A DNA stretch of 63,930 nucleotides, counting the filler, from an uncultured Ignavibacteriales bacterium (GTDB lineage Bacteria; Zixibacteria; MSB-5A5; GN15; JAAZOE01): the NCBI GenBank assembly GCA_964611355.1. It is 5 parts of 5 records of this genome, joined end to end, with 100 filler letters (N's around TTAATTAATTAA, not from the genome) between each part and the next. Parts side by side here need not be neighbours in the genome. Positions count along the whole stretch, not along the records: positions 1 to 15,808 come from CAZSYD010000051.1; 4 more parts are not named here. One strand, 5' to 3'. The notes under the pieces are model-generated. The model worked only from the letters and a program-made list of their open reading frames with translations, was not told where the DNA came from and did no database searches. Numbering within the stretch: position 1 is the stretch's first letter; every line of letters starts with the position of its first letter. The translations under genes were made by a program, and so were the position numbers. Positions 1 to 15,994 of the stretch are shown piece by piece.

Positions 1-2
1 CC

Positions 3-389
3 GGATCAGCTTCAGACGCCAAGTATCGGACTATTGCCAAAGATCTGGATCGCCTTGCAGGCGATAGGAGTTTATCAAATGCTGTCTTCTTGTTTCATTC
101 CCCGCCATATATGACCAATCTTGACCGGGCGGCATTGGATGGAAAAATGGTCGATCATGTTCCGCTCGATGTTCATATCGGGAGCATTGCCATCCGGCGA
201 TTTATCGAAAAGCGCCAACCGCTTTTAACGCTTCACGGTCACGTCCATGAATCAGCCGGATTAACCGGCAACTGGCGCGACAAAATCGGCCGGACGCCAT
301 GTCTCTCCGCAGCCCATGATGGGCCGGAACTGGCCCTGGTAAAATTCGCCCTGGAAGATATAGAGCACGCCGAGCGTGAATTATTGTGA
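3..389 (+). CDS. Metallophosphoesterase, 5'-truncated by window edge
   Basis: Frame open from window start; HSPP, HIGSxAIRRFIE and LHGHVHE motifs of calcineurin-like phosphoesterases. Confidence 0.85.
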   Translation, partial: GSASDAKYRTIAKDLDRLAGDRSLSNAVFLFHSPPYMTNLDRAALDGKMVDHVPLDVHIGSIAIRRFIEKRQPLLTLHGHVHESAGLTGNWRDKIGRTPCLSAAHDGPELALVKFALEDIEHAERELL

Positions 390-3300
390 TTAATCGATAT
401 CGTTGCCGCCCAGCATCAATTGACGAGCGGGGTCGGTTGTAGCTCCGATCTTGACAGCATAGCTGGATTTCCGGGCTATATCATCATCGGTGATGATATG
501 CACATCCAGCAATCCGTCTGATTTGTAACCTGTCCTCAAATAATTTAGTTCACCGAGACAAAGACTCCACCCTTCCAGCCAGAGCCGGAGTTCCTCCAAC
601 TGGTGACCGTCGCCACGGAAATGAACGAGCAGATCGACATCGCTGTCAGGACCGGCGGTGGCATTTTTGGTACTGCCAAAGATATACATCCCGACTACAC
701 CAAACCGTTTGGGATCCAACCGGGTCGCAATTTGCTCGGCAAACTGCAGGCGCCAGGTCCAGTAGTCTCCACGGGACGGCTGTTGTGGAGTCACCACGGC
801 ACTGGCTGCTTCCTGATCGGCAGCAATCGGTTCTGCCAGCATGCCCATTGCCTCACCCAGATCGGCATTCATTAGCAACCGTAGAACTTTCCCATCTGCG
901 ATCTTGGGAACGTCGATTACTTTTATGGTGTCGGCCAGTGAGGCAAATTCCGGCAGAATATCGGGAAGAAGATTTGGCGACCGGGTCAAAATCCGCTCGT
1001 TGAAAACAATTCCTTCATCATCAGGATAAAGCGGAAGATACTTAATTTCGGCTTCCACCAGATCCTGAAAGAAATGAGTTCCAAATGATACATCCGGCAA
1101 ATAACTACCCCGCTTGAAGGCAATCTCTATCAATGCCGCAGTGTTGTTGATTTCCGAATAGGTGACACTAACGCCAAGTTTGATATCTCCCCGGCTGCCC
1201 CATCGTCCGGGTCCCATAAGGATAAACTGGCGCCTGGGTAAAATCTTATTGAGTTTGCCGACCGCCTTACCGACATCAATTATCATCTGCCGGTCCGGCA
1301 GTTGACTGTACATTTTAGGGTCAACATAGACAATATGCGTAACCTCAGCCCACCCATTTGAAATATATTTATCAGCCGTAAAAACCACTTGCTCCCGGGG
1401 AACATCTTTGGGCAACGGTACCGGGCTGTTCTCAGGAGAATAACTTTGAGCCCGGCATTGCAGCAGATAAAAATCGCGCCCGTCGGATGCGAATTCAATG
1501 TCAATCGGATATCCGAGGGTTTTCTCCAGGGTATCCAGAATCGCCCTGATTTGTCGGACGAATGGAGTGCCGGTCACCAGTCCTTCAAACGTAGCCACCA
1601 ATTCATTATGATCAAAATCAAGATTTGATGCCGTCGCTCTTCTCAGATGATCGCCATCCAGTATCGAGACTATATCATTGATTCGGGGCAAATCAAAACC
1701 AACCTCTTTCAGGAAACCATTTATATCTATGGTCTCAAAATTGTTGGTCTCCAGATTTATGACATCAATCTTACGCGGTGAATACCTTACCGTTTCATCA
1801 GTAGTAACATTAACGCGCAGGCCCGGCTGCCCGGGAGCGATCATGATCGGATAATCATCACTGAGTCTGTCTACGGCGCGCGTCCCAAGGCCCGGCACCA
1901 ATCGGATAAGTCCATCCTCCCGTTTGATGCGGGGCGACCATCTGAATTCATTTCTGGAAAAGGCCACTCCGGCAAAAGAAGGTAAAAAATATTTACCAAC
2001 GCGGGTACCGACCACTTCCTGGATTATGATACCCATTTCTTCGCCGAAATCGATCAGACCGCGTTCGGCCCTGTATTCAATCGGATCCGGACCGAAGGTG
2101 GAGGCATACACTTCAGCAATGGCATCTATCAAGGCATCCAGGCGATTTTGTTTGCTGCCTTGGTTGGCAATAAAAAGGCTTTTGTATTTGCCTGAAAAGG
2201 CCGCACCGACGCGATCCTCAAGGAGGCTGGAGCTTCGAACAATAAGAGGTCGCTCGCCGAAATCATCCAGAGCCATGGAAAGCCCATTGGTGATATCAGC
2301 CGGGAAACGGGCGCTCTTAAAAGATTGGATGATATGCGGATATTCCAACCGCACTTGGTTGATCTCCTTGTATTTCTGTTCAACCACCTCATCGAAATTA
2401 TTGTAGTGCATGAAATGGAGCAGGACATCGGAGGTCACGTACCAGGTTTTCGGTATTTTTACATTTTGCAGGTTTTCATTTTTGCGCGCTTCTTTTCGTA
2501 GGATCTGAGTGGCCATGTAAAGACCGGCGCTTTTACCCCCGAGCTTGCCGTGACTTTCAGTGCTGAAGATCATATTATGCAGGAGATGGAAAAAATCATC
2601 CACTTCGACGAAATTCTTGGCCACGTTGATATACTGAAGCTGATCGGAAAGAAAGCGGCGTATTAGCGAGACATGGACGCCGATTTTGCTGGGGGAATAA
2701 ATGGTCGGCTCATCCTGGGCCACATGATGATAACGGCGGATGGCATCGGCCACCTCAGCCAGCGACAAGTTGCGGTTGACCACCTGGTCCAGGAAACTGA
2801 GTTTATCCTCCAGAATCCATCTCCGGATCAGACGCATAATCGCATCATCAGTTAGATTGTTGGCTGCAATTTTGAATACAGCAGTACTGAAATCAGCCGG
2901 TAGCCCCAAATCGCGCCGTACATGGGGCTTGTTCCATCCCTCCAGTTTTTCTTCCTCGATCAAATCCTCATCGGCACCGAATACCTGAGCCAGCTTTTCC
3001 GCCTCCCGAACACCGCTCCAGCAAAGATGATTGAGGATTTTACGCGAAATATTGAGGTAAAGATTCTTGTCAGTATGGCGGAGCATCTTTATAACCACCG
3101 GCCACTCTTTCCGCTCCCCGGAGATTCCATCTTTCCGGACAGAATCAAGTTCCTGTACCACCTGCCGCACGTGGTTATGCATCATCCAATGCCCCAGCCG
3201 TTCGGCAATGGTGCGAATCAACCGTGTTTCCTCTTTGAGGAAGGGACCGTCATCCTCCAGCGGCATCTCCTCGGTATAATAAACGCTGATAGCACCAAAG

Positions 3301-3638
3301 ACCATGTCTTGAACCGCAATATCGGTAGTTTGTACCCAGGCTGTTTCCGAAAAATCGGGAGATATATATTCCTTATCCTCAATGACAATTTTGGCCTGGC
3401 ATTTATCCGGGTACTGCCAACCTAATGGTATTGCTTCGATCACCTTGGGACAAATCAATTCGAGGGGCTTGTCCGGGTCGCGAAGTATCTCTTCGATCTT
3501 GTAAAGACAGTTTAATTCTTTGGCTCGTTGCTGGAGAGAATCTACCAGGCTGTCAAGCGCCCAGTAATCGCCCAGCGAATTCTCTTTTTTATTTTTTTCT
3601 TTTTCGTTATTTTTGTCGGCGTGATTATTTTCGCTCAT
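390..3638 (-). CDS. PEP-synthase/PPDK N-terminal-domain protein with N-terminal GAF-like sensor and C-terminal nucleotidyltransferase domain
   Basis: 1082 aa; LGGKSAGL, VRSSSLLED, FSGKYKS, GLGTRAV, DIEFA motifs; GPGRWGS domain; C-terminal IFGSTKNATAGPDSDVDLL (GS..DxD Pol-beta motif). Confidence 0.85.
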   Translation of the reverse strand: MSENNHADKNNEKEKNKKENSLGDYWALDSLVDSLQQRAKELNCLYKIEEILRDPDKPLELICPKVIEAIPLGWQYPDKCQAKIVIEDKEYISPDFSETAWVQTTDIAVQDMVFGAISVYYTEEMPLEDDGPFLKEETRLIRTIAERLGHWMMHNHVRQVVQELDSVRKDGISGERKEWPVVIKMLRHTDKNLYLNISRKILNHLCWSGVREAEKLAQVFGADEDLIEEEKLEGWNKPHVRRDLGLPADFSTAVFKIAANNLTDDAIMRLIRRWILEDKLSFLDQVVNRNLSLAEVADAIRRYHHVAQDEPTIYSPSKIGVHVSLIRRFLSDQLQYINVAKNFVEVDDFFHLLHNMIFSTESHGKLGGKSAGLYMATQILRKEARKNENLQNVKIPKTWYVTSDVLLHFMHYNNFDEVVEQKYKEINQVRLEYPHIIQSFKSARFPADITNGLSMALDDFGERPLIVRSSSLLEDRVGAAFSGKYKSLFIANQGSKQNRLDALIDAIAEVYASTFGPDPIEYRAERGLIDFGEEMGIIIQEVVGTRVGKYFLPSFAGVAFSRNEFRWSPRIKREDGLIRLVPGLGTRAVDRLSDDYPIMIAPGQPGLRVNVTTDETVRYSPRKIDVINLETNNFETIDINGFLKEVGFDLPRINDIVSILDGDHLRRATASNLDFDHNELVATFEGLVTGTPFVRQIRAILDTLEKTLGYPIDIEFASDGRDFYLLQCRAQSYSPENSPVPLPKDVPREQVVFTADKYISNGWAEVTHIVYVDPKMYSQLPDRQMIIDVGKAVGKLNKILPRRQFILMGPGRWGSRGDIKLGVSVTYSEINNTAALIEIAFKRGSYLPDVSFGTHFFQDLVEAEIKYLPLYPDDEGIVFNERILTRSPNLLPDILPEFASLADTIKVIDVPKIADGKVLRLLMNADLGEAMGMLAEPIAADQEAASAVVTPQQPSRGDYWTWRLQFAEQIATRLDPKRFGVVGMYIFGSTKNATAGPDSDVDLLVHFRGDGHQLEELRLWLEGWSLCLGELNYLRTGYKSDGLLDVHIITDDDIARKSSYAVKIGATTDPARQLMLGGNDID

Positions 3639-5389
3639 TTTAAAATCACTCCCCGCTTGGTTTGCCCGTCAACCCTTATGGTCACCGGACGTTTAAGGCG
3701 CACATGGCTGACCAGTTCGGTAGCGACAATCTCATTCTGGCCGGCCAACCACGACCAATCAATTTTGTATGCTCCGGTATGATGCACCGCCAGGTAACAT
3801 ATTTCGAAACTGGTTAGGTTATGGAAGAAATGCGATCCCTGGCTGAGCTCTATATCCATATCCTGCAGAGTAGCCTCGACAATAGCTCCCGCCCCGGAAA
3901 TTTGGCTCCACTCCACAGGAATCCCAAGCCAGGGATCAGAGCTACCCCAGCGGCCAAAACCGAGCAATAGGTATTTACGATCTTCCATCACCAATTGTCT
4001 ATTTATCTTCTCCAACTCGCCGGCAATTTGACCGGTATACCTGGCTTCAAATTTATCCGGCCGAACATAAACCACATCCACCAAGTCGTCAACGATGCCA
4101 TTGCCAAGTGTTCGCTCGGATGCTACCAGAACATTCTCACCTATCATTTCATCGACATTTACATCCACCGATTCATCGGATACTACCATTGGACGCACTT
4201 GCAAAAAATCAAACCGGGCCGGGATACCATTTTTCGGATCAAGGGTGACGGCGAATTCCATCTCAATTGGCGTTCCTATCGCCTCCTTGCAAACCTTCAG
4301 TAATTTCTTAAGCAGATTGTTCAGCGGCAGCAATCTATCCTGCAGAATCGGGGCAAAGGTCAATACCCGTGGGCCGTCAGCGCCGATCCCGGGCACTAGG
4401 CGATCATCCTGCGGTCGATAAGTGGAGGCGATATATTTCAAAGTATTGTCATATTCAGCCTCCGGAAGATTGCCTTTGATCATGTATTCGGTTTCCCGCA
4501 CCGGATCATAAGCCGGCGGCTGGCCCATATTAACCGCCCAGAATTCCGCTTGCGTCAGTTTAACCAACTTTCCCGCCGACCCCACCGGCGGACTCAGCTT
4601 GGGATAGGCCGGGCTGTAACTCCAAATCAACCCACCATCAACAATCGTCTTTCCCAAACCCAGAGCCAGATCAATCACTCCGTCTTTCGGTCTGGCTTTT
4701 CCAATCGGATAAAAATTGTAAGATCGGGCCACTCCTGAGATGTTAGGATAGAACCTGTCATTATATCTCTGCCCAGCTATTTCCTGTATGATCACCGCCA
4801 TTTTTTCTTCCTGATATGACCGTCCGGTAATGGTGATGTAATCGCGGGCTCCCTTGAAAAATACCGAGGCATAGACGAATTTGATGGCCTCAATCAGCTT
4901 TCGAAAACGGGTGTCGATATCCGGCTGATTATTGGGAATCATTTTGGTTCCATAAACACCGGCAAACGGTTTATACATGGCATCTTCGAGAAGTGAGGAA
5001 GACCTGATTGCCAGTGGTGTTTTTACTCCGGAAATTAAAGCTCGTATATCGCCGACGAATTCAGGGGGAAATTGAGCCTTCTGAAAAGCATGGGCAATAC
5101 GGTCATCCGATATCTCCGGATCAAACGCATCATAAAGTTTGTTATATTCAATGAAACGCTCAAAAAAACCGGTTGCCAGGACAACCAATCGGGGAATTCT
5201 GAGGGAAATTCCGGGGAAATCCTGATTACTAAAATGCTCTTTCAAGACATCCTTAATAAACGCCAGCCCCGATGCCTTGCCCCCGATCGAACCATATCCG
5301 ATGTAACTGATTACCTTATCCGACCCAAAAAAGTCACGATCAAATCCGGGTAATTGATCAGTTGTGACTGAAATTCTGCCGATTTTCAT
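3635..5389 (-). CDS. Shorter PEP-synthase/PPDK N-terminal-domain paralogue
   Basis: 584 aa; IGGKASGL, IRSSSLLED, FAGVY, GLGKTIVDG, EMEFA, GFGRWGS, SQGSHFFHNL; stop overlaps next ATG by 4 bp. Confidence 0.85.
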   Translation of the reverse strand: MKIGRISVTTDQLPGFDRDFFGSDKVISYIGYGSIGGKASGLAFIKDVLKEHFSNQDFPGISLRIPRLVVLATGFFERFIEYNKLYDAFDPEISDDRIAHAFQKAQFPPEFVGDIRALISGVKTPLAIRSSSLLEDAMYKPFAGVYGTKMIPNNQPDIDTRFRKLIEAIKFVYASVFFKGARDYITITGRSYQEEKMAVIIQEIAGQRYNDRFYPNISGVARSYNFYPIGKARPKDGVIDLALGLGKTIVDGGLIWSYSPAYPKLSPPVGSAGKLVKLTQAEFWAVNMGQPPAYDPVRETEYMIKGNLPEAEYDNTLKYIASTYRPQDDRLVPGIGADGPRVLTFAPILQDRLLPLNNLLKKLLKVCKEAIGTPIEMEFAVTLDPKNGIPARFDFLQVRPMVVSDESVDVNVDEMIGENVLVASERTLGNGIVDDLVDVVYVRPDKFEARYTGQIAGELEKINRQLVMEDRKYLLLGFGRWGSSDPWLGIPVEWSQISGAGAIVEATLQDMDIELSQGSHFFHNLTSFEICYLAVHHTGAYKIDWSWLAGQNEIVATELVSHVRLKRPVTIRVDGQTKRGVILK

Positions 5390-5560
5390 AGCAGTTTTTC
5401 CATCCGGGCAGAGACATCAAAAATCCTAATCACATGAATAATATAGCACTATAATTCCGATATTCTAATAAAAACCGCTCAACCAGAGAAACCTCCCAGT
5501 CAGGTGAAACTGGGTCGGCTTTCCCTTTATTAAAAGGGACATCGACGTACTGCCGGCAAT

Positions 5561-6847
5561 CTACACCCAGCCGCGGTCCCGGCATGCCTGCGCAACACGA
5601 GAGACGGCAATCATGTAGGCAGCATCGCGCATACAGACATTTCTCTTACGAGCCAATTCACTGACAGCCAAAAATGCGGATGTCATTTTTATATCAAGCT
5701 TGCCGAGGACTTCATCTTTTTCCCAGAAGTAGTTCATATTGCTCTGAACCTGTTCAAAATAACTGCAGGTCACACCTCCGGCATTACTTAAAAAATCGGG
5801 GATCATAAAAATGCCGCGGCTTTTGATGATTTCATCAGCTTCCGGGGTGGTGGGCCCGTTGGCGCCTTCGGCGATCATCTTGACTCTACCGCTTATCTGA
5901 CCGGCGTTATCACCTGTCACCTGGTTTTCCAGCGCACATGGAATCAGGATATCAACTTCCTGCGTCAACCAATCATCGCCCGGCAGCACCTCGTAGCCCA
6001 TGTCGCGCGCTTTATCTTTGTCGATGCCGCCAAAGCGATCGGTAATAGTCAGGAGCTCATCCAGATCTATGCCATCCTTCTTCCGATAAGCATAAGATAT
6101 CTGGTCATGTTGATCCCAGCAAGAAACGCAGATCACTTTGCCACCGATCTGGTTATATAGTCTGATGGCATACTGGGCCACATGACCGAAGCCCTGGATA
6201 CTGGCAATGGTATCCCCCGGACGAATGTCCATCTGTTTGAGCGCTTCCCGAACAGTGTAGATGACTCCAAATCCGGTTGCCTCTGTACGCCCTAATGATC
6301 CACACATCCCAACCGGCTTGCCCGTTATGAAGCCTGGATACTTTTCACCACGGATGGCCTCATACTCATCCAGCATCCACAGCATATGCTGGGCGCTGGT
6401 CATAACATCCGGAGCCGGTACATCGGAGAGTGGTCCGACATTTTTGGCCAGTTGCCGTACCCAGCCACGGCATAGAAATTCCTGCTCGTGAACACTGAGA
6501 TTGTGCGGATCGCAGATAACTCCACCCTTTCCGCCGCCCAGTGGTATATCAACCACGGCACACTTCCAAGTCATCAACATGGCCAGGGCACGTACTGTAT
6601 CGATTGTCTCCTGAGGGTGAAAGCGAATGCCGCCCTTGCACGGCCCTCGAGCGTCGTTATGCTGTACTCGAAAACCACGAAATATTTTTACACTTCCATC
6701 ATCCATCCGGACCGGGATATTAAAAGCGTATTCTCTCATCGGAAAGCGCAATAGGTCTCGTGAGGCGCTATCAAGCTCCAGCATATCAGCTACATGGTCG
6801 AACTGCTCCTGAGCCATATGGAACGGATTAAAAGCCTTAGCGTTCAT
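5561..6847 (-). CDS. gdhA: Glu/Leu/Phe/Val dehydrogenase (glutamate dehydrogenase)
   Basis: KGGIRFHP, PLGGGKGG, VPAPD, GRTEATG, EGANGP, NAGGV motifs; start moved to ATG 6847 (MNAKAFNPF) after GAGGG. Confidence 0.92.
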   Translation of the reverse strand: MNAKAFNPFHMAQEQFDHVADMLELDSASRDLLRFPMREYAFNIPVRMDDGSVKIFRGFRVQHNDARGPCKGGIRFHPQETIDTVRALAMLMTWKCAVVDIPLGGGKGGVICDPHNLSVHEQEFLCRGWVRQLAKNVGPLSDVPAPDVMTSAQHMLWMLDEYEAIRGEKYPGFITGKPVGMCGSLGRTEATGFGVIYTVREALKQMDIRPGDTIASIQGFGHVAQYAIRLYNQIGGKVICVSCWDQHDQISYAYRKKDGIDLDELLTITDRFGGIDKDKARDMGYEVLPGDDWLTQEVDILIPCALENQVTGDNAGQISGRVKMIAEGANGPTTPEADEIIKSRGIFMIPDFLSNAGGVTCSYFEQVQSNMNYFWEKDEVLGKLDIKMTSAFLAVSELARKRNVCMRDAAYMIAVSRVAQACRDRGWV

Positions 6848-7009
6848 ATCGATGCCCTCGCAGATATTAAACTGTTGGCAAAAAACCAATCTTCCCGAAA
6901 AAAGACCGGAACTCTCGACGGGTAATAACATCCCTCATTATCTCTATGAATAACAAAGAGAAAAGCCGAAAACATATTTTCCCCCGAGTCGGGAATGGCT
7001 ATCCCCGTT

Positions 7010-7058
7010 TTGTTATTATTTTCACGAACTATGATATATTATTTATCGGAGATGTCAA
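7010..7058 (-). promoter_or_regulatory. Putative sigma70 promoter of gdh overlapped by a Rex-like operator
   Basis: Minus strand TTGACA (7058-7053), 16 bp, TATCAT (7036-7031); TTGTTATTATTTTCACGA (7010-7027) matches 11/14 of TTGTGAA-N4-TTCACAA. Confidence 0.5.
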
Positions 7059-7234
7059 GTCGAGATTGAGAAACTCGTAATAAAACTCCAAAAAACTCTA
7101 TGTCTAATAATGTTCCTCTTTCAATAAGCGTATTGATTCATTTTTAGAGAGCCACCAACTTATTTGGGTTTCTCATTTATCACTAACCATCCGGGAAATC
7201 GCCTTTTCCAGGTTTGACCCCGTTAGTTTGTTTA

Positions 7235-7668
7235 TGATCCTCCCCCGGTTTAGTGGACACGTAGAAAGGATAGCGTTATGATTCTTTCAGGAGGTGTCCA
7301 GATGTCGGGGAATGGAAATCGTCGCAGTTATGACCGGGCGTTCAAAGTGGAAGCGGTACGGCTGGTGACTATCAGAAATTGTTGAAGGATCACAAAATGA
7401 TCTGCGGTATGAGCCGCAAGGCAGATCCCTTGTGATCCGCCACAGGCGGACTCAAATGGAGTCGTTCTTTGCAACTTTGAAGACGGAGCTGATTTACGAT
7501 GAACCATTTGTCACACGATAAGATGCGAAAGCGAAGATATTTGAGTATATTGAATTGTTTTACAACCGGGTGCGTCGACATTCGAGCCTGGGCTTCAAAA
7601 GCCCGGTTGACTTTGAAAGGATGGCTAACCTAACTTAACTGGGTGTCCACTTTTTCAGGGGAAGCCCA
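7235..7668 (+). mobile_element. Internally deleted IS3-family element (434 bp)
   Basis: TG...CA ends with 26-bp imperfect IRs (18/26); OrfA start MSGNGNRRSYDRAFKVEAVRLV (ATG 7302) joined to OrfB tail ESFFATLKTE...FYNRVRRHSSLGFKSP with stops. Confidence 0.9.
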
Positions 7669-7816
7669 ATATACCAGTATCTACCTCTTTTGTATATACT
7701 CCCCATGATAAAAACCTCTGTTCAATGGTCACTATATGCCCACTCAACTCTTCAAAATAAATATGCTATATTATAACAGATTGTTAATAAAAAACTTATG
7801 TGAGGATGGAAATATA

Positions 7817-7906
7817 TGGCGGAGAGGCTGGGATTCGAACCCAGGGACCCCGCAAGGGGTCAACGGTTTTCGAGACCGCCCCGTTCAACCGCTCCGGCAC
7901 CTCTCC
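7817..7906 (-). tRNA. tRNA-Ser(CGA)
   Basis: GGAGAGG acceptor stem, CTCGAAA anticodon loop, long variable arm, GTTCGAATC T-loop, encoded CCA. Confidence 0.96.
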
Positions 7907-7999
7907 ATCCAACAGACTTCCTATCGGCCGGCGGCCGATTTTTTTGTATCCAATCATATTATTAGAATTCCCGGCAATGTAAAGTAGAATCTGCCAATT

Positions 8000-8536
8000 T
8001 CAAGTATTTGCTCCCTGCTCTTGGAGTTTCCGGTGCAACCGTTTCAAAAAATCCTCGTCGGGACGGATCAACAAATAACCAATCACCGTCAAAGCGATAA
8101 ACAGCCAGATATAGTCGAACTCCAATCCGAGTAAAACCAGCAACAATCCGTAAATGGAGCAGGATTCAACCAGGGCAAACATAATTATTGAAATGTTGAA
8201 GGCCGTTTTTGAAAATTCGGCTGGTTCCGCGCCTTTGCCCGAACGAAACAATCCCTGCGGGCCTTGCGGTTTATTCCCTGTCGAATAATTGATAATAAAA
8301 GCCGGCAGACGATTTCTGACAAACACGGCAATCGCTATTTCAGTAAACGATAATATTAATAAAAGATAGAATAGTATATGCAGCTGTGAAGGCGAAGTGT
8401 CCGGTGGCGATATTCGGTTATGTGTAACCAAATAAGCGACGATAATATACAACGCAGGGGCGACAAAACCAAAGACGGGCCCGATAACGGCGATTCTCTT
8501 TTTCGCACGTGAAATTTCGGCCTTTTCTTCTATCAT
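8000..8536 (-). CDS. Hypothetical ~4-TM membrane protein, paralogue of 8602-9096
   Basis: 178 aa, hydrophobic segments; FIALTVIGYLLIRP resembles neighbour. Confidence 0.75.
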   Translation of the reverse strand: MIEEKAEISRAKKRIAVIGPVFGFVAPALYIIVAYLVTHNRISPPDTSPSQLHILFYLLLILSFTEIAIAVFVRNRLPAFIINYSTGNKPQGPQGLFRSGKGAEPAEFSKTAFNISIIMFALVESCSIYGLLLVLLGLEFDYIWLFIALTVIGYLLIRPDEDFLKRLHRKLQEQGANT

Positions 8537-8601
8537 CTCTTCGCTCCGATAGTGATTTATTCAGCTTTTCACTTCTTACAGTCGCGCAAACTGCCCGAAA
8601 T

Positions 8602-9096
8602 TTACTTCGTATTGCTCAATTTTTGAAACATCCCTTCCAGAAATTTCTTCCGGGGACGGAAAAGCTGATACCCGATGAGCGTCAAAGCCACAAACAACAT
8701 CATCACTTCGATAGTCCCCCCCAAAATAACGAGCAGAATACCAAACATCAGGTGCGAAAGATTAATGACATACACAAACATCGATATCTTCAAGGCGCTT
8801 TTTTCAAATCTTTCTTCGATTCCGGTTCCCTCGCCAATTAGAATTCCGGCAGGCAGGCGGCGGCGAAGAAAATAAACCAGAGCGTAATCAATTGCACTTG
8901 CCAGTAGAAGAACATAAAAAACAATCTGCAGATTCGGACGACCGGCAAAATCAATACCCACTTCGGTTGAGACCGTCTTGTTCGTTATAAGCAGAACGAT
9001 GATAAAAATCGCTATCGGCATAACCACATTCATGAAAAGGCCCAGGTAGGTAGTTTTTGTCAATACTCTGATAATGTATGCGTCGTTTGTGTTCAA
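8602..9096 (-). CDS. Hypothetical ~4-TM membrane protein
   Basis: 164 aa; TTG start overlaps tadA stop. Confidence 0.75.
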   Translation of the reverse strand: MNTNDAYIIRVLTKTTYLGLFMNVVMPIAIFIIVLLITNKTVSTEVGIDFAGRPNLQIVFYVLLLASAIDYALVYFLRRRLPAGILIGEGTGIEERFEKSALKISMFVYVINLSHLMFGILLVILGGTIEVMMLFVALTLIGYQLFRPRKKFLEGMFQKLSNTK

Positions 9097-9572
9097 CTTT
9101 CCCGTCCCTTTAATTGACGGACTTTCTGGAAAAAGGCACGCATTATTTCGGCCGCATCTTCGGCCATAACGCCACCTTCCAGTTCTATCCTGTGATTAAG
9201 GCGCGAATCGACCGGGATGTTGAAAATCGAGCCGCAGGCGCCGAATTTCGGATCCGGGACGCCAAAGACAATCTTCTTAATCCGGGCCAGGACCGCCGCT
9301 CCGGCACACATAGAACACGGTTCCAGGGTACAGTATAAAATCGCGTCGTCGAGACGCCAGTCTCCGACGGCCTGGCAGGCGGAAGTAATAGCCAGAATCT
9401 CGGCGTGAGCGGTCGGATCTTTAAGTTTTTCGATCTGATTAAAACCCCGCCCTATTAGCTGCCCATTAAGAACAATTACCGCCCCGACCGGAACTTCACC
9501 GATGCGAAAAGCTTTTTCCGCTTCCTGCAGAGCTACTTTCATCCAGTAGGAATTTCCGAATTTATCAGTCAT
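9093..9572 (-). CDS. tadA: tRNA adenosine(34) deaminase
   Basis: GEVPVGAV, DPTAHAE, TLEPCSMC, DPKFGACGS. Confidence 0.95.
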   Translation of the reverse strand: MTDKFGNSYWMKVALQEAEKAFRIGEVPVGAVIVLNGQLIGRGFNQIEKLKDPTAHAEILAITSACQAVGDWRLDDAILYCTLEPCSMCAGAAVLARIKKIVFGVPDPKFGACGSIFNIPVDSRLNHRIELEGGVMAEDAAEIMRAFFQKVRQLKGRES

Positions 9573-9666
9573 CCGGTTTATAATGTAGCTTTTGTCAATT
9601 GCGGTGGCAAGCTCTTTGGGATCGTTTTACTTGACAATCACCGGCAGCATTGGATATTTCAAAACA

Positions 9667-11199
9667 ATGAACAAGAGAAATATCAGTCGAGTCGTATATC
9701 CTGCGATTCTTGTCGTTTTATTCGGCATCTGTTATTTGCGAACGTTATTTCCCACGATCTGGTTCGGCGATACGGCTGAATTCCAGACTATCGCTTACCT
9801 GGGAGGACTCGCCCACACTACGGGATATCCTTTATATCTGACCCTTGCCAAACCGTTTGTATTTTCCCCGGTCGGCAATCCGGCATTGAATCTTAATTTC
9901 ATGTCGGCACTTTTCGGCGTTCTCACGGTATTGGCGGTCTACTGGTTGATTGCGTTTCTCGTTGAAAACCGGTTTTACGCATGGCTTGGCGCAATTGTAT
10001 TCGGCTGTGGTATAACCTTCTGGTCGCAGACGTCAATGGCCGAGGTTTACACCCTGCACAATTTCATTTTCGCCCTGATTATAATCCTTGTACTAAAATG
10101 GGAAAAATCCTCCGAGCGAAAGTACCTGCAGATCGGGCTGTTTCTTTTGGCGTTGTCGCTGGGCAATCATCTGTCGATATTGTTGCTGGTTCCTCCAATC
10201 ATCTTCCTGTCGGCGATCAAGCGTAATACTGATTCGAGATGCAACTCTCTTGGCAACATCGCAGCATTGGTATGGCCGCCTGCAATCGCTTTGTTTATCG
10301 CAATACTTCTTTATTTCATTCATGACGCGACCGCCTCGCCGTACGATCACATGCGGGCGATTGAGATGATGTCCCCCGAATCATGGGGAAAAACGGCCGC
10401 CGATTTTGACAGTTTCTGGGAACGGATGTTCCACCTTCTGACTGCCCGCCAGTTTTCCGGAAGCATGTTCAATATCGGATGGAGTGAAATATGGGAGCAC
10501 ATGGTAAAATCACTTTCTTTTGCCGTGGAAAATCTCGGGATACCGGGGATTATTTTCGGTCTGGCAGGTTTCATTGTTTTATTTTTTTCGCGATGGAAGC
10601 AGGCTGTATTTTTTGCCGTGCTTTCGCTTTCTATCCTGATTTATAATCTCGATTACGATATCTGGAAATTCGATATCGATGTTTATTTCATCCCGCTCTG
10701 GATGATCACCGTCGTTATGACGGCAATCTGCATAATGTATTTATCCGAAAAAGCGGGGGCGGTAATATCATTTGCATTTGCGCGTCAGGTCACGGCGATT
10801 ATAATCGCCCTTATTATATTGACACCGATGCTCTATGGTTCGGAGCAGGTATCCGCTATTGCCGCCGGACACCCGCCGGGTGAGCCTGACCCGTACAAGG
10901 CTTACAACAGCACCAAGTCGGTGATGCAAAAAATCGAAGACAACGCTATTATCTTTGCCCTCTGGCATCAGTTCCACGTTATCGGATATATTTTATTGGT
11001 CGAAGAAAGCCGAACCGGTATCGCCATTCACGAGTTGTTCCCGGCCGGAGAAACTTACGATTTTTCACCCAGCTATCTGGAATATATTGATGCTAATATC
11101 GATATTCGTCCAATCTATCTCACATATCCCGCGAACGATCTTAAGTTGCTCTATCGCTTTGAGTATCAGCCGCCGCTGATCAGGCTGCGAAGATATTAG
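9667..11199 (+). CDS. DUF2723-like multi-pass membrane protein (GT-C-like)
   Basis: GDTAEF, LAHTTGYPLY, WSQ..MAEVYTL, GNH; many TM helices; start moved to MNKRNIS. Confidence 0.85.
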   Translation: MNKRNISRVVYPAILVVLFGICYLRTLFPTIWFGDTAEFQTIAYLGGLAHTTGYPLYLTLAKPFVFSPVGNPALNLNFMSALFGVLTVLAVYWLIAFLVENRFYAWLGAIVFGCGITFWSQTSMAEVYTLHNFIFALIIILVLKWEKSSERKYLQIGLFLLALSLGNHLSILLLVPPIIFLSAIKRNTDSRCNSLGNIAALVWPPAIALFIAILLYFIHDATASPYDHMRAIEMMSPESWGKTAADFDSFWERMFHLLTARQFSGSMFNIGWSEIWEHMVKSLSFAVENLGIPGIIFGLAGFIVLFFSRWKQAVFFAVLSLSILIYNLDYDIWKFDIDVYFIPLWMITVVMTAICIMYLSEKAGAVISFAFARQVTAIIIALIILTPMLYGSEQVSAIAAGHPPGEPDPYKAYNSTKSVMQKIEDNAIIFALWHQFHVIGYILLVEESRTGIAIHELFPAGETYDFSPSYLEYIDANIDIRPIYLTYPANDLKLLYRFEYQPPLIRLRRY

Positions 11200-11465
11200 A
11201 TTCTTATAAAACCAAAGAAGCCCCGGAATAAAGATAACGAAATCGAATCGCCCCATTCAAGGTCGCATCGGCGACCGCGCAATGACCCGGATATGGATTT
11301 TGCTGACAGTCTGAATTATGACATCATATCCTGCCTACGAGAGCATCCACTCGCCAATCTGTCTTATGATCCAAGAAAAGGGAGTATCAGAAACCTATTG
11401 CCATTTCTGGGGGCTATATTATATTTATAGGTTAAGGGCGGAAATTGCCCGGGAGGTATTATCTT

Positions 11466-11816
11466 ATGATGATTACCCTGTGCCGAGCCAAGATTCATAG
11501 GGCCGCCATAACCGACGCCAACCTCGATTACGAAGGCTCGATTACCATAGACCGCACCCTGATGGATGCCGCCGGACTGTATCCTTTTGAGAAAGTCCAG
11601 GTGCTTAACCTGAACAACGGTTCCCGGCTGGAGACCTATATCCTGGAAGGCCCTCCCGATAGCGGAACCATTTGTCTCAACGGCCCGGCCGCCCGGCTGG
11701 GCGTAAAAGGGGACAAAGTTATTATTATCGCCTACGGCCATTTTACCCCCGAAGAGGCCGGCATGTTCAAGCCGACGCTGGTTCGTGTCGATAATAATAA
11801 CAGGGTAATCAGTTAA
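11466..11816 (+). CDS. panD: Aspartate 1-decarboxylase
   Basis: KIHRA, YEGSITID cleavage site, NGSRLETY, LNGPAAR; GGAGG RBS. Confidence 0.96.
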   Translation: MMITLCRAKIHRAAITDANLDYEGSITIDRTLMDAAGLYPFEKVQVLNLNNGSRLETYILEGPPDSGTICLNGPAARLGVKGDKVIIIAYGHFTPEEAGMFKPTLVRVDNNNRVIS

Positions 11817-12586
11817 TGAAAGACATCGCCGTTATCATCCTTGCAGCCGGTAAAGGCAAAAGGATGAAATCCGATCTTGCCAAAGTTTTGCACCGTGTTC
11901 TCGGGCGGCCGATGATTGAACATTTGTTAAACACCCTGGTAACGCTGAACGTCAAAAAGATAGTCATCGTGGTCGGATATCAGGCTGACCGGGTTAAAGA
12001 CGCTCTTTCAAAATTTAATAACAAAGCGGACTTCGTTCTGCAGGAAAGGCAACTCGGCACCGGCCACGCGGTTTTGACGGCTGAAGATAAAATCAAGGAT
12101 TTTTCAGGAGATATTCTGGTTCTGGCGGGAGACGTTCCTTTCCTTTCAGGCGAGACGATTCAAAAGCTGGTCGAGGTTCACCGCCGGGAAAAGGCGGCAG
12201 CGACGGTGCTTTCGTCTATTCCGCCGGATGCGTCCGGATACGGCCGAATCGTCCGGATACCGGGAACGGACGTGGTCGATAAAATTGTCGAACATAAGGA
12301 TGCGACCGAAGACGAAAAAAAGATCGGCGAGATCAATACCGGCACATTCTGTTTCAACTCGAAATATCTCTTTGAGGCCCTTCGGGAGGTAAAAGCGGAC
12401 AATATACAAAAAGAATATTACCTCACCGATGTAATGGAGGTTTTGAGAAACAAAGGTCACAAGGCGGCCGTGTATTTGACCGACAACGCGGACGAGGTTT
12501 TGGGCGTTAATTCGTTCGAGCAACTGGCTGATCTCGAAACCCAATTTGCCAAAAAGTTCGGATTTAATGAAGCGTCGGCGAAATAA
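11816..12586 (+). CDS. GlmU-like nucleotidyltransferase, N-terminal domain only
   Basis: ILAAGKGKRMKS, QLGTGHAV, GDVP, GYGRIVR, EYYLTD; ends at 256 aa with no hexapeptide domain. Confidence 0.88.
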   Translation: MKDIAVIILAAGKGKRMKSDLAKVLHRVLGRPMIEHLLNTLVTLNVKKIVIVVGYQADRVKDALSKFNNKADFVLQERQLGTGHAVLTAEDKIKDFSGDILVLAGDVPFLSGETIQKLVEVHRREKAAATVLSSIPPDASGYGRIVRIPGTDVVDKIVEHKDATEDEKKIGEINTGTFCFNSKYLFEALREVKADNIQKEYYLTDVMEVLRNKGHKAAVYLTDNADEVLGVNSFEQLADLETQFAKKFGFNEASAK

Positions 12587-12693
12587 TTGCGTATATTATT
12601 GTGAAGTATTCCCGTATTCCCGGTCGCCCAAAGTTGTTGACACGGGTTTTAACAACGGCTAATTTCTTTGGGTGACCTGCGAAGGTGGCAGAT

Positions 12694-13173
12694 ATGAAAA
12701 ATTTGAGAAAAATGTTTCTAGCGGCGATCATCCTGTTTTTACCGTTATCTTCCGCGGCGCAGATGGCCGACCAGGCAGAAGTCAGGGAGATCAATGAAAA
12801 ATACGACCTTGGCCTGTCCCGGCGGCCGTCGCTTCCTTTCATCAACATATCGCGGCTTAACATGACACAATCTTACAGTATCGGTTTTTACACCGGCGGA
12901 GGATTTTCCGGCACGCAGGCGCTGTATAACAACACGATCACTTACCAGTTGGCCAGACCTTTGACGCTGACATTAAATCTGTCTATTCTGCACGATCCGA
13001 GCGCTCTATGGGGTAACGAGTCGTTTAGCAATACGGCCACTTTTTTGCCGTCCGGCCGGCTTGACTGGAGACCATCGGATAATTTCCGGATGTCGATCGG
13101 GATTGAAAGATGCCCGGCTTATTACAATGCAGACTATTATAACCCGGGGAGGTACAGATTCTGGCGCGAATGA
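12694..13173 (+). CDS. Hypothetical secreted protein
   Basis: Signal peptide; sits in operon spacing. Confidence 0.7.
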   Translation: MKNLRKMFLAAIILFLPLSSAAQMADQAEVREINEKYDLGLSRRPSLPFINISRLNMTQSYSIGFYTGGGFSGTQALYNNTITYQLARPLTLTLNLSILHDPSALWGNESFSNTATFLPSGRLDWRPSDNFRMSIGIERCPAYYNADYYNPGRYRFWRE

Positions 13174-13221
13174 AACTGACAGATTCCGCCTTCCGCTTTC
13201 TCCTCCCGCAATCGTATTTCC

Positions 13222-13740
13222 ATGGCTAAGAAATCAAAAAGACCAAAAGGCGATTCCGCGTACCGCATAAAGCGGGCCAAAAACAAAAAGCCCCTGCGCT
13301 TTCTTGAGCTTGGCATTTTATTTCTCCTTGTTATTGTCGTGGTTTACGCGGCGTCATTTACGGTTCAGATCGCCAGGGGATACTCCGGAGAAAACGACGC
13401 CACCGAGTATTATCTCAATTTGCAGGTTCTAAACGGATGCGGAGAAAAAGGGCTGGCCAACAAACTGGCCAACAGGATCGAGGTTTCGGTGGAAAAACCG
13501 CTCGCCGTTCGAGTTATAGACACCGACAATTTCGATAATTTTGGAGTCGAAAAAACATTTATTATCTCCCGGAAAGAAAACTTGACTGCGGCCAACCTGC
13601 TGGCCGGGCAACTCGGCCTTGACGACGCCGTTACATACCGGGAAATAGAAGATAATTATCTTGATATCGGCGCCACCCTGGTTTTGGGCAGGGATTACCG
13701 CCAGGTGTTCGGTATCGAAGCCGGAGAAAAGGTCAATTAA
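13222..13740 (+). CDS. LytR C-terminal-domain membrane protein
   Basis: One TM, VLNGCGEKGLA, TLVLGRDY. Confidence 0.85.
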   Translation: MAKKSKRPKGDSAYRIKRAKNKKPLRFLELGILFLLVIVVVYAASFTVQIARGYSGENDATEYYLNLQVLNGCGEKGLANKLANRIEVSVEKPLAVRVIDTDNFDNFGVEKTFIISRKENLTAANLLAGQLGLDDAVTYREIEDNYLDIGATLVLGRDYRQVFGIEAGEKVN

Positions 13741-13779
13741 TTAATCATCAACCAAAGGAGTAGCAGAAAACCAATCAAC

Positions 13780-14121
13780 ATGACACCTCTCGCCCTGGCC
13801 CGCATTGCAGGAAAGCTGGCTCTTTCCAAAAAAGGTTTTGACGTCAGGATATTGAAGCTGGAAAATATTTCCTCGGTATGCGACTACTTCGTTATCTGCT
13901 CCGGATCAGTCAACGTGCACGTCAAAGCCATCGCCGACGCTATTGAGCGGGGACTTCGCGAAAAAGGAGTTCGCCCCTCCCACCGGGAGGGCGCCGATGA
14001 AGCAACGTGGGTACTGCTGGACTACTTTGATGTAGTCGTTCATGTGTTCAGCGAAAAGGCGCGGCAGTTCTATGCGCTGGAAAAACTCTGGGGCGACGCC
14101 CCTGTGGAAAACCTGAATTAA
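13780..14121 (+). CDS. rsfS: Ribosome silencing factor
   Basis: DYFVICSG, WVLLDYFDVVVHVF, FYALEKLWGDA. Confidence 0.95.
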   Translation: MTPLALARIAGKLALSKKGFDVRILKLENISSVCDYFVICSGSVNVHVKAIADAIERGLREKGVRPSHREGADEATWVLLDYFDVVVHVFSEKARQFYALEKLWGDAPVENLN

Positions 14122-14212
14122 ACAGGCCGGTAAAACGGCTCCATCATTTCGTTGCAACACGAATTAATCGGAAATAGAAATTCTAAATAGCTTTTAGTAA
14201 CGAGGGAGTAAG

Positions 14213-15460
<1,248 letters not shown>

Positions 15461-15908: not shown

Positions 15909-15994
15909 ATATAAAACTTGATTTTTGATTGTTGCAGGACTACCGTAACCTTCAAGGGAGAAGCTGCAAATGAAGCGATTTGCGGCGGTTTTGT

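Follow-up and report, generated by a model that had tools for sequence, protein, structure and literature searches.

A widespread gene cassette pairing glutamate dehydrogenase with input-controlled PPDK_N-family enzymes of predicted phospho-histidine chemistry

Results and discussion

Gene organization of the locus

The window analysed here, a stretch of 63,930 nucleotides (filler included) from the genome of an uncultured Ignavibacteriales bacterium, carries three minus-strand genes at positions 390..6847, as defined by open reading frames and their translations. A glutamate dehydrogenase (GDH) gene is followed by genes for a small and a large paralogue that both contain a PPDK_N ATP-grasp domain (Table 1). 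The stop codon of the small gene and the start codon of the large gene share the sequence ATGA (3635-3638), which makes the pair translationally coupled, as the initial annotation described it. The gdh gene is not coupled to the pair, being set apart from it by a hairpin-bearing gap of 171 nucleotides.

The GDH matches the Pfam domains ELFV_dehydrog_N and ELFV_dehydrog, has the Thermococcus/Pyrococcus enzymes as its closest solved chains (E about 1e-121) and is 66-82% identical to orthologues from other genomes. Its catalytic-lysine motif, PLGGGKGG, is intact. The open frame extends to 6931, but homologues begin at about residue 29 of this longest frame, which places the start at the ATG at 6847, preceded by GAGGG. 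Both stem-loops in the gap downstream lie close to the gdh stop codon, and a weak T-run follows the second one (5514..5495). Folding of the gap gives a minimum free energy of -51 kcal/mol (z -2.4). An Rfam search of the gap returned zero family matches, and a promoter scan gave no promoter-like match inside it. At the other end of the cassette, a metallophosphoesterase gene is cut by the end of the contig. Its 5' part is found on another contig of the assembly, and a full-length orthologue contains PF00149.

Table 1. Features of the gdh cassette and its flanks (positions in the window)
Feature	Position	Strand	Evidence
Best sigma-70-like promoter match, 5' of gdh	7031..7058	-	TTGACA-16-TATCAT, 11/12; a consensus match only, and this consensus may not be the host's
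gdh, cassette-type glutamate dehydrogenase, 428 aa	5561..6847	-	Pfam, closest solved chains, orthologues
gdh-small intergenic gap, 171 nt, two stem-loops	5390..5560	-	Folding, motif scan
Small paralogue, 584 aa: ATP-grasp and C-terminal swivel-like His domain	3635..5389	-	Pfam, AF2 model
Small PPDK_N ATP-grasp, residues 34-416, GGK and RSSSLLED	4142..5290	-	PF01326 E 5.5e-33
Small C-domain, residues 417-584, GRWGS...SQGSHFFHN	3638..4141	-	Model, structure search
Small invariant His520 codon	3830-3832	-	
Large paralogue, 1082 aa, with N-terminal sensor-type domain and C-terminal Pol-beta nucleotidyltransferase	390..3638	-	Pfam, orthologue alignment
Large N-terminal sensor-type sub-domain, residues 27-157, LNCLY...WQYP..C	3168..3560	-	Common to other regulators of the genome
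Large PPDK_N ATP-grasp, residues 365-745	1404..2546	-	PF01326 E 2.9e-59
Large C-domain, residues 746-945, GRWGSRGD...FGTHFFQD	804..1403	-	Aligns with small C-domain, shared invariant residues
Large invariant His855 codon	1074-1076	-	
Large variable linker and minimal Pol-beta nucleotidyltransferase	393..803	-	Pfam NTP_transf_2 and Polbeta
Calcineurin-like metallophosphoesterase, 3' part, cut by contig end	3..389	+	Tail-to-tail with large paralogue

Domains of the two paralogues

The motif RSSSLLED occurs in both proteins and is followed by a C-terminal domain that reads GRWGS..SQGSHFF in the small paralogue and GRWGS..FGTHFF in the large one. These motifs, together with those of the nucleotidyltransferase, are invariant or nearly so in 31 orthologues. 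The histidine, GGK and RSS..ED are invariant in small and large paralogues, and the C-domain histidine is invariant in 44 sequences. The NTP_transf_2 match covers residues 978-1017 of the large paralogue, whose catalytic residues (G988-S989, D1000-x-D1002 and D1045) are also conserved at this level; the Pol-beta domain first reported thus looks intact. The sensor-type sub-domain has no Pfam match. Elsewhere in this genome it also forms the N terminus of a hybrid histidine kinase and of a LuxR/GerE regulator, and its nearest named clusters in the Atlas are GAF domains (0.89-0.90), which is a lead only.

As the initial annotation expected, Pfam finds PPDK_N and NTP_transf_2, and neither a PEP-utilizers nor a PEP-utilizers_C domain in either paralogue. 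Both also lack an acceptor-binding domain, the third domain that is present in every characterised dikinase.

A candidate phospho-histidine swivel domain

The initial annotation saw no phospho-histidine motif in these proteins. This holds at the level of sequence: HMM and profile-profile comparison of the C-domain with canonical PEP-utilizers (PF00391) gave nothing (hhalign probability 0.07%). It does not hold at the level of predicted fold. An AF2 model of the small paralogue (pLDDT 81) has rifampin phosphotransferase and PEP synthase as its best structural matches (Z 23.6). A separate model of the C-domain (pLDDT 93.6) was searched against 48,161 chains (VIA-wide), and seven of its top eight matches are phospho-histidine swivel domains, with 103-110 residues aligned at Z 6.0-7.3, which is below the tool's caution mark of 8. 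They comprise the PK C-terminal domain, the PPDK phosphoryl-carrier domain, residues 761-865 of rifampin phosphotransferase, residues 391-510 of maize PPDK and, three times, Enzyme I. A Foldseek search gave no match at E <= 1e-3. On the basis of its modelled fold, the GRWGS..G[ST]HFF domain is assigned as a divergent phospho-histidine-type swivel with an invariant histidine. Because this fold and histidine occur together, both paralogues likely use a dikinase-type His~P mechanism, with the invariant histidine as the candidate catalytic residue.

PPDK entries differ in how much of the small model they align with. Both domains are matched (model residues 6..584 or 24..584) by 1dik, 2dik, 1kbl, 1jde, 1ggo, 1vbh and 2x0s, and the ATP-grasp alone by 5lu4, 5jvl, 1vbg, 2r82, 5jvn and 5jvj. 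In 1dik, 2dik, 1kbl, 1jde and 1ggo the histidine domain presumably sits beside the nucleotide site. The 1vbh match (rmsd 13.6) is at odds with a split of the entries by histidine-domain position.

Distribution and variants of the cassette

A search with the small protein found more than 7999 homologues. Among the best 80 of 585 matches, a set that leans towards orthologues, gdh immediately precedes the small gene in the same orientation in 66 of 73 loci, is divergent in two more and is missing from the close upstream region in five; the large gene follows the small one in 59 of 60 loci, the metallophosphoesterase keeps its tail-to-tail position in 47 of 59, and the loci span about ten phylum names. 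Linkage to gdh, on which the initial annotation had staked its proposal, is thus very strong. Given the number of homologues and the conserved gene order, the arrangement is real and far beyond chance.

Other architectures are found among longer relatives, which include receiver, sensor, STAND-type and nucleotidyltransferase fusions. Of 120 longer matches, 21 are fusions of small and large proteins and 70 carry a receiver domain. In 25 of 30 loci with a receiver-domain paralogue, the neighbouring GDH belongs to another class, the canonical NADP-GdhA equivalog; the scanned members of this type contain no nucleotidyltransferase, and none of the 30 loci has a phosphoesterase within 1.5-kb flanks. 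A large paralogue without a small one follows gdh in nine of 14 further regions, and four of 11 such large-only cassettes lack the nucleotidyltransferase. Each cassette type has a signal-input domain, either sensor or receiver, on one PPDK_N-family protein. With the receiver-type cassettes and part of the large-only ones lacking it, the nucleotidyltransferase is not a core component, which calls for a change to the kinase/NMP-transferase complex first proposed. A similar nucleotidyltransferase occurs as a fusion with a GDH-like protein in two cases. Of 82 long GDH proteins, none was fused to PPDK_N.

Cassette GDHs without the catalytic lysine

In nine of 84 cassette GDHs, the catalytic lysine (equivalent to K125 of the C. 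symbiosum enzyme by alignment offsets) is replaced by Y, S, M, N or E, and the equivalents of K113 and D165 are kept. An intact GdhA is encoded in the same locus for eight of these nine, compared with one of the 75 lysine-bearing proteins, and the two GDHs share only about 31-34% identity. Because the lysine has been lost in these proteins and nearly all of them lie beside an intact GdhA, the sequences indicate a non-catalytic role for the GDH protein in the module. The initial view of GDH as a simple regulated target does not account for these proteins, which are conserved with the module.

Comparison with known systems

Like PpsA and PPDK, the cassette paralogues have an N-terminal PPDK_N ATP-grasp with GGK and RSS..ED, then a swivelling phospho-histidine fold (whole-protein Z 16-23.6). 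Unlike them, they have no PEP/pyruvate TIM barrel, carry G-[ST]-H-F-F after a longer pre-histidine loop in place of G-G-x-T-S-H-A-A, and lack the PF00391 signature; they also differ in having sensor and nucleotidyltransferase domains and in their genetic linkage to GDH. The top structural match is 5hv1, the rifampin phosphotransferase RPH (Z 23.6), which is grouped here with the PigC/RedH-type small-molecule dikinases. Its histidine domain, also C-terminal, matches the cassette C-domain at Z 7.2. However, RPH has a substrate-binding domain of ~430 residues between ATP-grasp and histidine domain that is absent from the cassette. The two-component dikinases HpeHI and phenylphosphate synthase likewise divide the work between two proteins; HpeI (9goj) matches the cassette ATP-grasp at Z 17.2, and a conserved swivel histidine is essential in HpeHI (PMC12167813). 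The HpeHI subunits are an ATP-grasp on the one hand and a combination of swivel and substrate-binding domains on the other, whereas both cassette subunits carry ATP-grasp and swivel, and neither has a substrate-binding domain.

Enzyme I chains match the cassette C-domain at Z 6.0-6.6. In EI-Ntr, a GAF sensor precedes an autophosphorylating swivel-histidine enzyme that passes phosphate to protein in a nitrogen-related context. Enzyme I takes its phosphoryl group from PEP in a barrel domain, whereas the cassette donor would be ATP in the ATP-grasp. Neither an HPr-like nor an EIIA-like partner was found near the cassette. As with GlnE and GlnD, which the initial annotation invoked, a Pol-beta-type nucleotidyltransferase adjoins a central ammonium-assimilation enzyme, but that of the cassette is minimal (~120 aa) and dispensable in several variants. 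SelO AMPylates and inactivates mammalian GLUD1 (PMC12375108). It is a pseudokinase unrelated to the cassette nucleotidyltransferase. GDH-family proteins take regulatory, non-catalytic roles in the Thermus GdhA/GdhB hetero-hexamer and as the Bacillus 'trigger enzymes' RocG and GudB. Lysine-less cassette GDHs beside intact GdhA fit the same pattern, although ATP-grasp/histidine enzymes are not known to be involved in those systems.

Possible functions of the cassette

The best reading is that the locus represents a widespread cassette whose enzymes, input-controlled and of predicted phospho-histidine chemistry, have a GDH-family protein as their fixed partner. We tentatively favour, at somewhat less than an even chance, a signal-gated, ATP-driven phospho-histidine system. 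ATP would bind in the ATP-grasp and phosphorylate the swivel histidine, as in PPDK, PEP synthase and rifampin phosphotransferase. The swivel domain would then ferry the phosphoryl group to an acceptor site provided in trans by the GDH hexamer, which may serve as a docking platform and read out glutamate, 2-oxoglutarate and NAD(P)H. Signals perceived by the sensor domain would set the phosphorylation state of the complex and hence flux at the glutamate/2-oxoglutarate node. In the four-gene form, to which the present locus belongs, the nucleotidyltransferase and the convergent metallophosphoesterase might add a writer/eraser layer, using a phosphodiester mark such as AMP, that is not part of the core. 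Gene adjacency is the same for a protein or a metabolite acceptor, and for GDH as target or as sensor.

Two other functions are each unlikely, to a similar degree. One, in line with the initial annotation, is a classical covalent on/off switch in which GDH is no more than a regulated target, marked in response to the sensor. The nucleotidyltransferase would adenylylate or uridylylate GDH, and/or the His~P domains would phosphorylate it, with the metallophosphoesterase as eraser, much as GlnE and GlnD act on glutamine synthetase. The conserved nucleotidyltransferase residues, the retained metallophosphoesterase and the GDH-nucleotidyltransferase fusions favour such a switch. Neither GlnE nor P-II was found in this 96%-complete genome (the GlnE domain, PF03710, is also absent from the large paralogue), and AMPylation of GLUD1 by SelO provides a precedent. 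Against it are the receiver-type cassettes without nucleotidyltransferase or phosphoesterase and the large-only cassettes without nucleotidyltransferase, and a switch would be superfluous for a catalytically dead GDH.

The other is a metabolic machine, a small-molecule dikinase for which GDH supplies the substrate-binding subunit. Its His~P domain would act on a ligand bound to GDH, phosphorylating 2-oxoglutarate, the carbinolamine or iminoglutarate intermediate, glutamate or ammonia, and lineages without GOGAT could in this way, for example, achieve high-affinity ammonium assimilation driven by ATP. All characterised relatives (PEP synthase, PPDK, rifampin phosphotransferase, PigC and HpeHI; PMC12167813) phosphorylate small molecules. 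In the cassette the acceptor domain is absent and GDH is the constant neighbour, even lysine-less GDHs retain ligand-binding residues, and a GDH-phosphoglycerate kinase fusion recurs elsewhere. In a sample of 201 genomes of the phylum, just 19 have a strong Glu_synthase match, and matches in this genome are weak. However, the lack of GOGAT extends across the phylum independently of the module, lysine-less GDHs could not perform normal reductive amination, and receiver, sensor, STAND-type and nucleotidyltransferase fusions typify signalling proteins rather than bulk metabolic enzymes.

That the paralogues are ordinary PEP synthases or PPDKs, or an unrelated dikinase, that merely sit beside gdh is most improbable: their best NCBIfam matches are PEP synthase models, but at 50-53 bits against cut-offs of 598-883, and this idea is contradicted by the missing barrel, by a separate canonical PPDK elsewhere in the genome and by gene order kept across phyla, with two GDH classes each paired with module paralogues.

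A literature search retrieved no paper on a GDH-linked PPDK_N cassette. Since the gene set recurs across many bacterial phyla, it probably represents a system, as yet undescribed, that controls or partners a central nitrogen-metabolism enzyme.

A conserved gdh cassette

The glutamate dehydrogenase (GDH) gene near the start of the window is followed by genes for two paralogues that carry the PPDK_N ATP-grasp domain, and a convergent metallophosphoesterase gene completes the cassette. The start of gdh is assigned to an internal ATG because GAGGG precedes this codon and homologues align from about residue 29. An ATGA overlap joins the small and large paralogue genes.

Coordinates of the cassette genes in the window
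Gene	Position	Strand	Basis
gdh	open frame 6931..5561, likely start ATG at 6847	-	ORFs, homologue alignment
small paralogue	5389..3635	-	584-aa ORF
large paralogue	3638..390	-	1082-aa ORF
metallophosphoesterase, 3' end of gene	3..389	+	cut by contig end

The 171 nt between gdh and the small gene fold into two stem-loops. No Rfam family was found in this gap, and the sole Rfam match in window positions 1-8000 is a tRNA. This tRNA gene (7820-7906, minus strand, 54.3 bits) is located beyond the promoter region of gdh, on its upstream side, and a sub-threshold 'Plastid-psbl-rps4' match on the opposite strand is probably its mirror. Further along are two tandem paralogous ORFs for small membrane proteins of 178 and 164 aa (8000-8536 and 8602-9096, both minus strand), adjoined by a tadA-like deaminase ORF at 9093-9572. 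Window positions 1-15808 are a single contig; the run of N thereafter is visible as X in the ORF at 15857-16375. The 5' part of the metallophosphoesterase gene sits on another contig of the same assembly (2.57 Mb, 96% complete).

A scan of one genome per species yielded 585 relatives of the small protein, from which the best 80 loci were kept, a set skewed toward orthologues. By source name these span about ten phyla: Zixibacteria, Ignavibacteria, Calditrichota, Bacteroidota, Acidobacteriota, Gemmatimonadota, Planctomycetota, Eisenbacteria, Krumholzibacteriota and Delongbacteria. Co-occurrence with gdh, which the initial annotation had put forward as a check, is pronounced in this set. An orthologue with 58-86% identity lies directly upstream on the same strand in 66 of the 73 loci that have at least 1.5 kb of upstream sequence; it is divergent in two and missing from five (L013, L037, L063, L065 and L079). 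Six of the seven loci with shorter upstream sequence have the 3' end of gdh at the contig edge. The large gene directly follows the small one in 59 of 60 loci with enough downstream sequence. Among the 59 loci that reach 1 kb beyond the large gene, a metallophosphoesterase gene occurs within 500 nt of it in 47 (45 convergent, 2 co-directional) and within 3 kb in four more, and is missing in eight. No further conserved neighbours were found among the best 80 loci.

Domain composition of the encoded proteins

Pfam detects PPDK_N (PF01326) in the large paralogue (E = 2.9e-59) and in the small one (E = 5.5e-33), in agreement with structure matches, and assigns residues 978-1017 of the large protein to NTP_transf_2/Polbeta. 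PEP-utilizers and PEP-utilizers_C domains are absent from both Pfam parses, and neither paralogue matches the Pfam model for the PEP/pyruvate-binding TIM barrel (PF02896). This is the arrangement that the initial annotation had predicted. The small protein ends right after the domain that follows the ATP-grasp, hereafter the C-domain, while the large protein runs on into the nucleotidyltransferase. NCBIfam returns only weak partial matches to PEP synthase, PigC/RedH and rifampin phosphotransferase models, all far under their cut-offs (20-40 bits versus 999-1350 for the rifampin phosphotransferase and PigC types). This pair is not the housekeeping enzyme, since a canonical PPDK is encoded elsewhere in the genome. 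Together with the missing barrel, this bears out the earlier view that these proteins are not PEP synthases. The GGK, RSS..ED and E-x-E...Q-x-R motifs of the ATP-grasp are invariant across both paralogue families, and both proteins therefore look catalytically competent, judging from these motifs.

The nucleotidyltransferase part of the large protein scores 30.7 bits against PF01909 (cut-off 21). It has the minimal set of Pol-beta residues, with G988, S989, D1000, D1002 and D1045 conserved in 31 orthologues. NTP_transf_2 and Polbeta are the only such families detected in this protein, and the GlnE domain PF03710 was not found in the genome. The MntA-type antitoxin equivalog NF047752 is not reached (20.6 bits versus a cut-off of 60), and no HEPN neighbour was seen.

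The gdh product carries both ELFV dehydrogenase domains (Pfam) and the features of the hexameric class of about 420 aa, including the catalytic lysine and aspartate (K135 and D175). It matches GDHs in the PDB at E of about 1e-121 and falls under the NCBIfam equivalog cut-off (466 versus 750 bits). The window encodes the C-terminal 128 aa of the metallophosphoesterase, with FHSPP and HGHVHE motifs; a full-length orthologue from locus L058 scores 41.5 bits against PF00149 (cut-off 21.5).

A C-domain with a swivel-type fold

The C-domain has no Pfam relative among the 44 members scanned. Its profile finds only chance-like matches among PDB sequences, such as Crov588 repeats, and comparison with 20 canonical phospho-His domains from related genomes gives an hhalign probability of 0.07%. 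A scan of the genome with PF00391 finds no match on the contig that holds the cassette. At the level of sequence, the initial annotation was thus correct in seeing no TSHAA-type phospho-His motif. The predicted fold tells a different story.

The full-length model of the small protein (pLDDT 81) reaches Z 23.6 against rifampin phosphotransferase and PEP synthase. Both of its domains align with the PPDK entries 1dik, 2dik, 1kbl, 1jde, 1ggo, 1vbh and 2x0s (model residues 6..584 or 24..584 against chain residues 11/12/17..505-530), and the ATP-grasp alone aligns with 5lu4, 5jvl, 1vbg, 2r82, 5jvn and 5jvj. In entries of the 1dik type, the His domain presumably sits beside the nucleotide site; 1vbh (rmsd 13.6) breaks this division between the two groups.

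Foldseek finds nothing for the C-domain alone at E ≤ 1e-3. Its list of weak matches holds PPDK, RraA-like, LD-carboxypeptidase, chaperonin apical, PA and aconitase-X domains, all of which we take to be 'swivelling beta/beta/alpha' folds in SCOP. The C-domain was also modelled by itself (pLDDT 93.6), and this model was set against 48,161 representative chains by a method other than Foldseek. The top eight matches are the C-terminal domain of Geobacillus pyruvate kinase (Z 7.3), the phosphoryl-carrier domain of PPDK (7.2), residues 761-865 of rifampin phosphotransferase (7.2), residues 391-510 of maize PPDK (7.1), a DRTGG domain (7.0) and three Enzyme I N-terminal domains (6.0-6.6); all of these values are below the tool's caution mark of 8, and they amount to a fold assignment rather than proof of homology.

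A single histidine (H520 in the small protein, H855 in the large) is invariant in 44 of 44 aligned C-domains. In the model it is placed where a helix begins, following a strand and then a loop. From alignment A5 and known structures, we take this to be the position of the catalytic histidine in G-G-x-T-S-H-A-A. Both the invariance and the placement of this residue fit the swivel assignment. On the basis of these models, we read the two paralogues as probable ATP-grasp and phospho-His swivel enzymes that dispense with the acceptor-binding third domain of all characterised dikinases. The family is large; among 1.84 billion proteins, the C-domain profile finds 2,282 representatives of 50% identity clusters at E ≤ 1e-3.

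The sensor region of the large paralogue

Residues 27-157 of the large protein match no Pfam family. Two other proteins encoded in the same genome begin with this sub-domain: a LuxR/GerE regulator (L086:231-1178, contig C97) and a hybrid histidine kinase that also has two receivers and an Hpt domain (L087:699-3329, minus strand, contig C35). This shared use identifies it as a signalling input module. Its nearest named protein Atlas clusters are GAF (0.89-0.90), which we treat only as a lead. Two cysteines, C44 and C80, are conserved in the sensor of the large protein and missing from its histidine kinase and LuxR paralogues, so no ligand is proposed.

Variant cassettes define a constant unit

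Cassettes of this type occur in several arrangements. In the first, the small and large proteins are fused into one chain of 1,523-1,655 aa (21 of the best 120 'longer' relatives of the small protein), which indicates that the two work together. One fusion that was scanned has two PPDK_N stretches and a nucleotidyltransferase, and three fusions have two C-domains.

In the second, proteins of about 1,030 aa begin with a receiver domain (70 of the same best 120). Directly upstream of this form, in 25 of its 30 best loci (L090-L119, from the sample of the window's phylum), is a GDH gene of a different class, whose product scores 787 bits against a cut-off of 536 for the NCBIfam equivalog of NADP-specific GdhA. 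Phosphoesterase and nucleotidyltransferase were not found alongside receiver-form cassettes. Proteins of about 1,000 aa with receiver/(DUF5752)/PPDK_N/C-domain architecture also lie beside NADP-GdhA at L013:2425-7012 and L024:1536-6242.

In the third, the small gene is dispensed with. Fourteen regions were taken that have a cassette-type GDH yet no match in an earlier tally of the family. The large gene directly follows gdh without a small gene in nine, lies about 2.4 kb off in two, and is missing in three, one of them at a contig end. Four of the 11 large genes in these regions lack the nucleotidyltransferase part. The tally itself, which was limited to three scored candidates per genome and passed over large-only cassettes, places the family in at least 104 of 201 genomes.

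In the fourth, GDH-like proteins P0197 (1720 aa) and P0198 (803 aa), 28-29% identical to the window GDH, are fused C-terminally to NTP_transf_2 and have in common with the large protein the motif GST..N.TAG..SD.DL. None of 82 long GDH-containing proteins fuses GDH to PPDK_N.

From these variants, the constant unit is a GDH-family gene together with one protein that combines an input domain, an ATP-grasp and the C-domain histidine. Beyond this unit, cassettes may add the small paralogue, the nucleotidyltransferase and the phosphoesterase.

Several other fusions were encountered. P0197 also has HEAT repeats. Two odd forms of the module are P0295, with the STAND-type architecture TIR-NB-ARC-receiver-DUF5752-PPDK_N, and P0277, in which receiver-PPDK_N is fused to a complete methylmalonyl-CoA mutase domain. 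In proteins P0139-P0174, of about 1,100 aa, a GDH-family domain is repeatedly found joined to phosphoglycerate kinase (PF00162); they are annotated only as 'phosphoglycerate kinase' and, where the source is named, come from Scalindua or other Planctomycetota.

Some cassette GDHs lack the catalytic lysine

The window GDH has an intact PLGGGKGG motif, the lysine of which corresponds by alignment offsets to K125 of the Clostridium symbiosum enzyme; presumably this is the motif in which Lys125 of that enzyme sits. Lys125 is called the acid/base group in PMC4580590.

Among 84 cassette-type genes counted in loci L001-L080 and L150-L163, this position is lysine in 75 and Y, S, M, N or E in nine (PLGGxKGG, with gdh upstream of the small gene, in L010, L021, L024, L031, L038, L057, L069, L071 and L073). 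Eight of the nine loci also hold an intact gene of the NADP-GdhA type (PMGGGKGG), and the ninth is on a contig of 9.8 kb. A second GDH-family gene occurs in only one of the 75 cassettes with lysine. The altered GDHs are still 58-72% identical to the window GDH, and the small and large genes still follow them. A 32-row alignment that includes seven of the lysine-less rows shows no variation at the K113 and D165 equivalents or at the dinucleotide-binding glycines, and the rows from L010, L024 and L031 all have the invariant C-domain histidine.

These GDHs appear to have been kept under constraint after catalysis was lost, and thus probably have a non-catalytic job in the module. They could be a ligand-reading partner, a scaffold or an acceptor-binding subunit. 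The initial annotation had proposed a complex acting on GDH or a related metabolite, and this pattern, seen in nine of 84 cassettes, argues against GDH being no more than a regulated target.

Other residues also set cassette GDHs apart. H143, C154, C389 and C450 (numbering of P0003) and a CW..DQ insertion (W272, D273) that follows the second Rossmann strand are invariant or nearly so in alignment A4, and by eye they differ in Thermococcus GDH and in the second GDH of the same genome. Co-prediction of GDH (from A4) with the small protein (alignment A1, residues 13-584), run without controls, scored 0.01 against a mark of 0.32, a value that bears on binding in neither direction.

Nitrogen metabolism in the genome and phylum

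The genome encodes two glutamine synthetases and a second GDH (42-44% identity), and has only weak Glu_synthase matches. GlnE and P-II were not found in this assembly, which is 96% complete. Of the 201 genomes sampled from the phylum, only 19 give a strong match to Glu_synthase, irrespective of the module, in frames of 206-748 aa (18 of the 19 within 466-561 aa). Because GOGAT-like matches are so rare across the sample, no correlation between the module and GOGAT absence can be drawn. GDH identities in an 81-genome sample are bimodal, with 44 genomes, including this one, at 66-100% and all other matches at or below 55%.

Possible modes of action

The observed architecture, conservation, linkage to GDH and signalling-type input domains could be accommodated in several ways. 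We tentatively favour a signal-gated, ATP-driven phospho-His system that works through a GDH partner, without regarding this reading as the probable outcome. ATP would phosphorylate the swivel histidine in the ATP-grasp site, and the swivel domain would then carry the phosphoryl group to an acceptor provided by GDH. The sensor or receiver would gate this carriage. In the four-gene form, the nucleotidyltransferase and phosphoesterase may write and remove a reversible second mark.

A GlnE-like covalent switch acting on active GDH, as first proposed, seems unlikely. SelO AMPylates mammalian GLUD1, a precedent for covalent GDH control (PMC12375108), but the lysine-less cassette GDHs speak against a protein that is a target only. 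Also unlikely is a metabolic role, ATP-driven amination included, with GDH serving as the subunit through which a small-molecule dikinase binds its substrate.

Rather improbable, in our estimate, is a metabolite-gated phosphorelay in which the GDH hexamer, active or catalytically dead, would be the receptor for glutamate, 2-oxoglutarate and NAD(P)H. The ATP-grasp/swivel-His proteins would replace HATPase histidine kinases, and His~P would be passed to GDH residues or to receiver domains. The notion that ordinary dikinases lie beside gdh by coincidence can be virtually dismissed, given the separate canonical PPDK.

Relation to described systems and significance

We count PTS Enzyme I/EI-Ntr among the nearest described systems. 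GlnE and glutamine synthetase are another, and differ in that PF03710 is found neither in the large protein nor in the genome. PEP synthase and PPDK share PPDK_N with the proteins described here, which lack their PEP/pyruvate barrel and G-G-x-T-S-H sequence signature. Rifampin phosphotransferase and PigC have a large substrate-binding domain between the ATP-grasp and His domains, whereas here the C-domain directly follows the ATP-grasp. In HpeHI (PMC12167813), one subunit has only an ATP-grasp and the other has the swivel and substrate-binding domains; here both paralogues have an ATP-grasp and a C-domain. A full-text search, mostly outside subscription journals, found no paper on the module, on DUF5752 or on GDH with PPDK_N-type proteins.

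GDH stands at the junction of carbon and nitrogen metabolism. To our knowledge, the known post-translational control of bacterial GDH is sparse compared with that of glutamine synthetase. The cassettes reveal an uncharacterised enzyme family tied to two GDH classes in about ten phyla by name, the majority of which have received little study. Should GDH be modified or read by the module, or be the means by which it acts, this would represent a new regulatory principle for nitrogen assimilation. The phospho-His machinery of PEP utilizers would then have been put to a new, ATP-driven use without an acceptor domain, and one more central enzyme would have been turned into a pseudoenzyme partner. 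Were the phosphorelay to exist, it would parallel the nitrogen PTS, with ATP as the driver, and would set the balance of carbon and nitrogen in phyla whose searched genomes are mostly without GOGAT.
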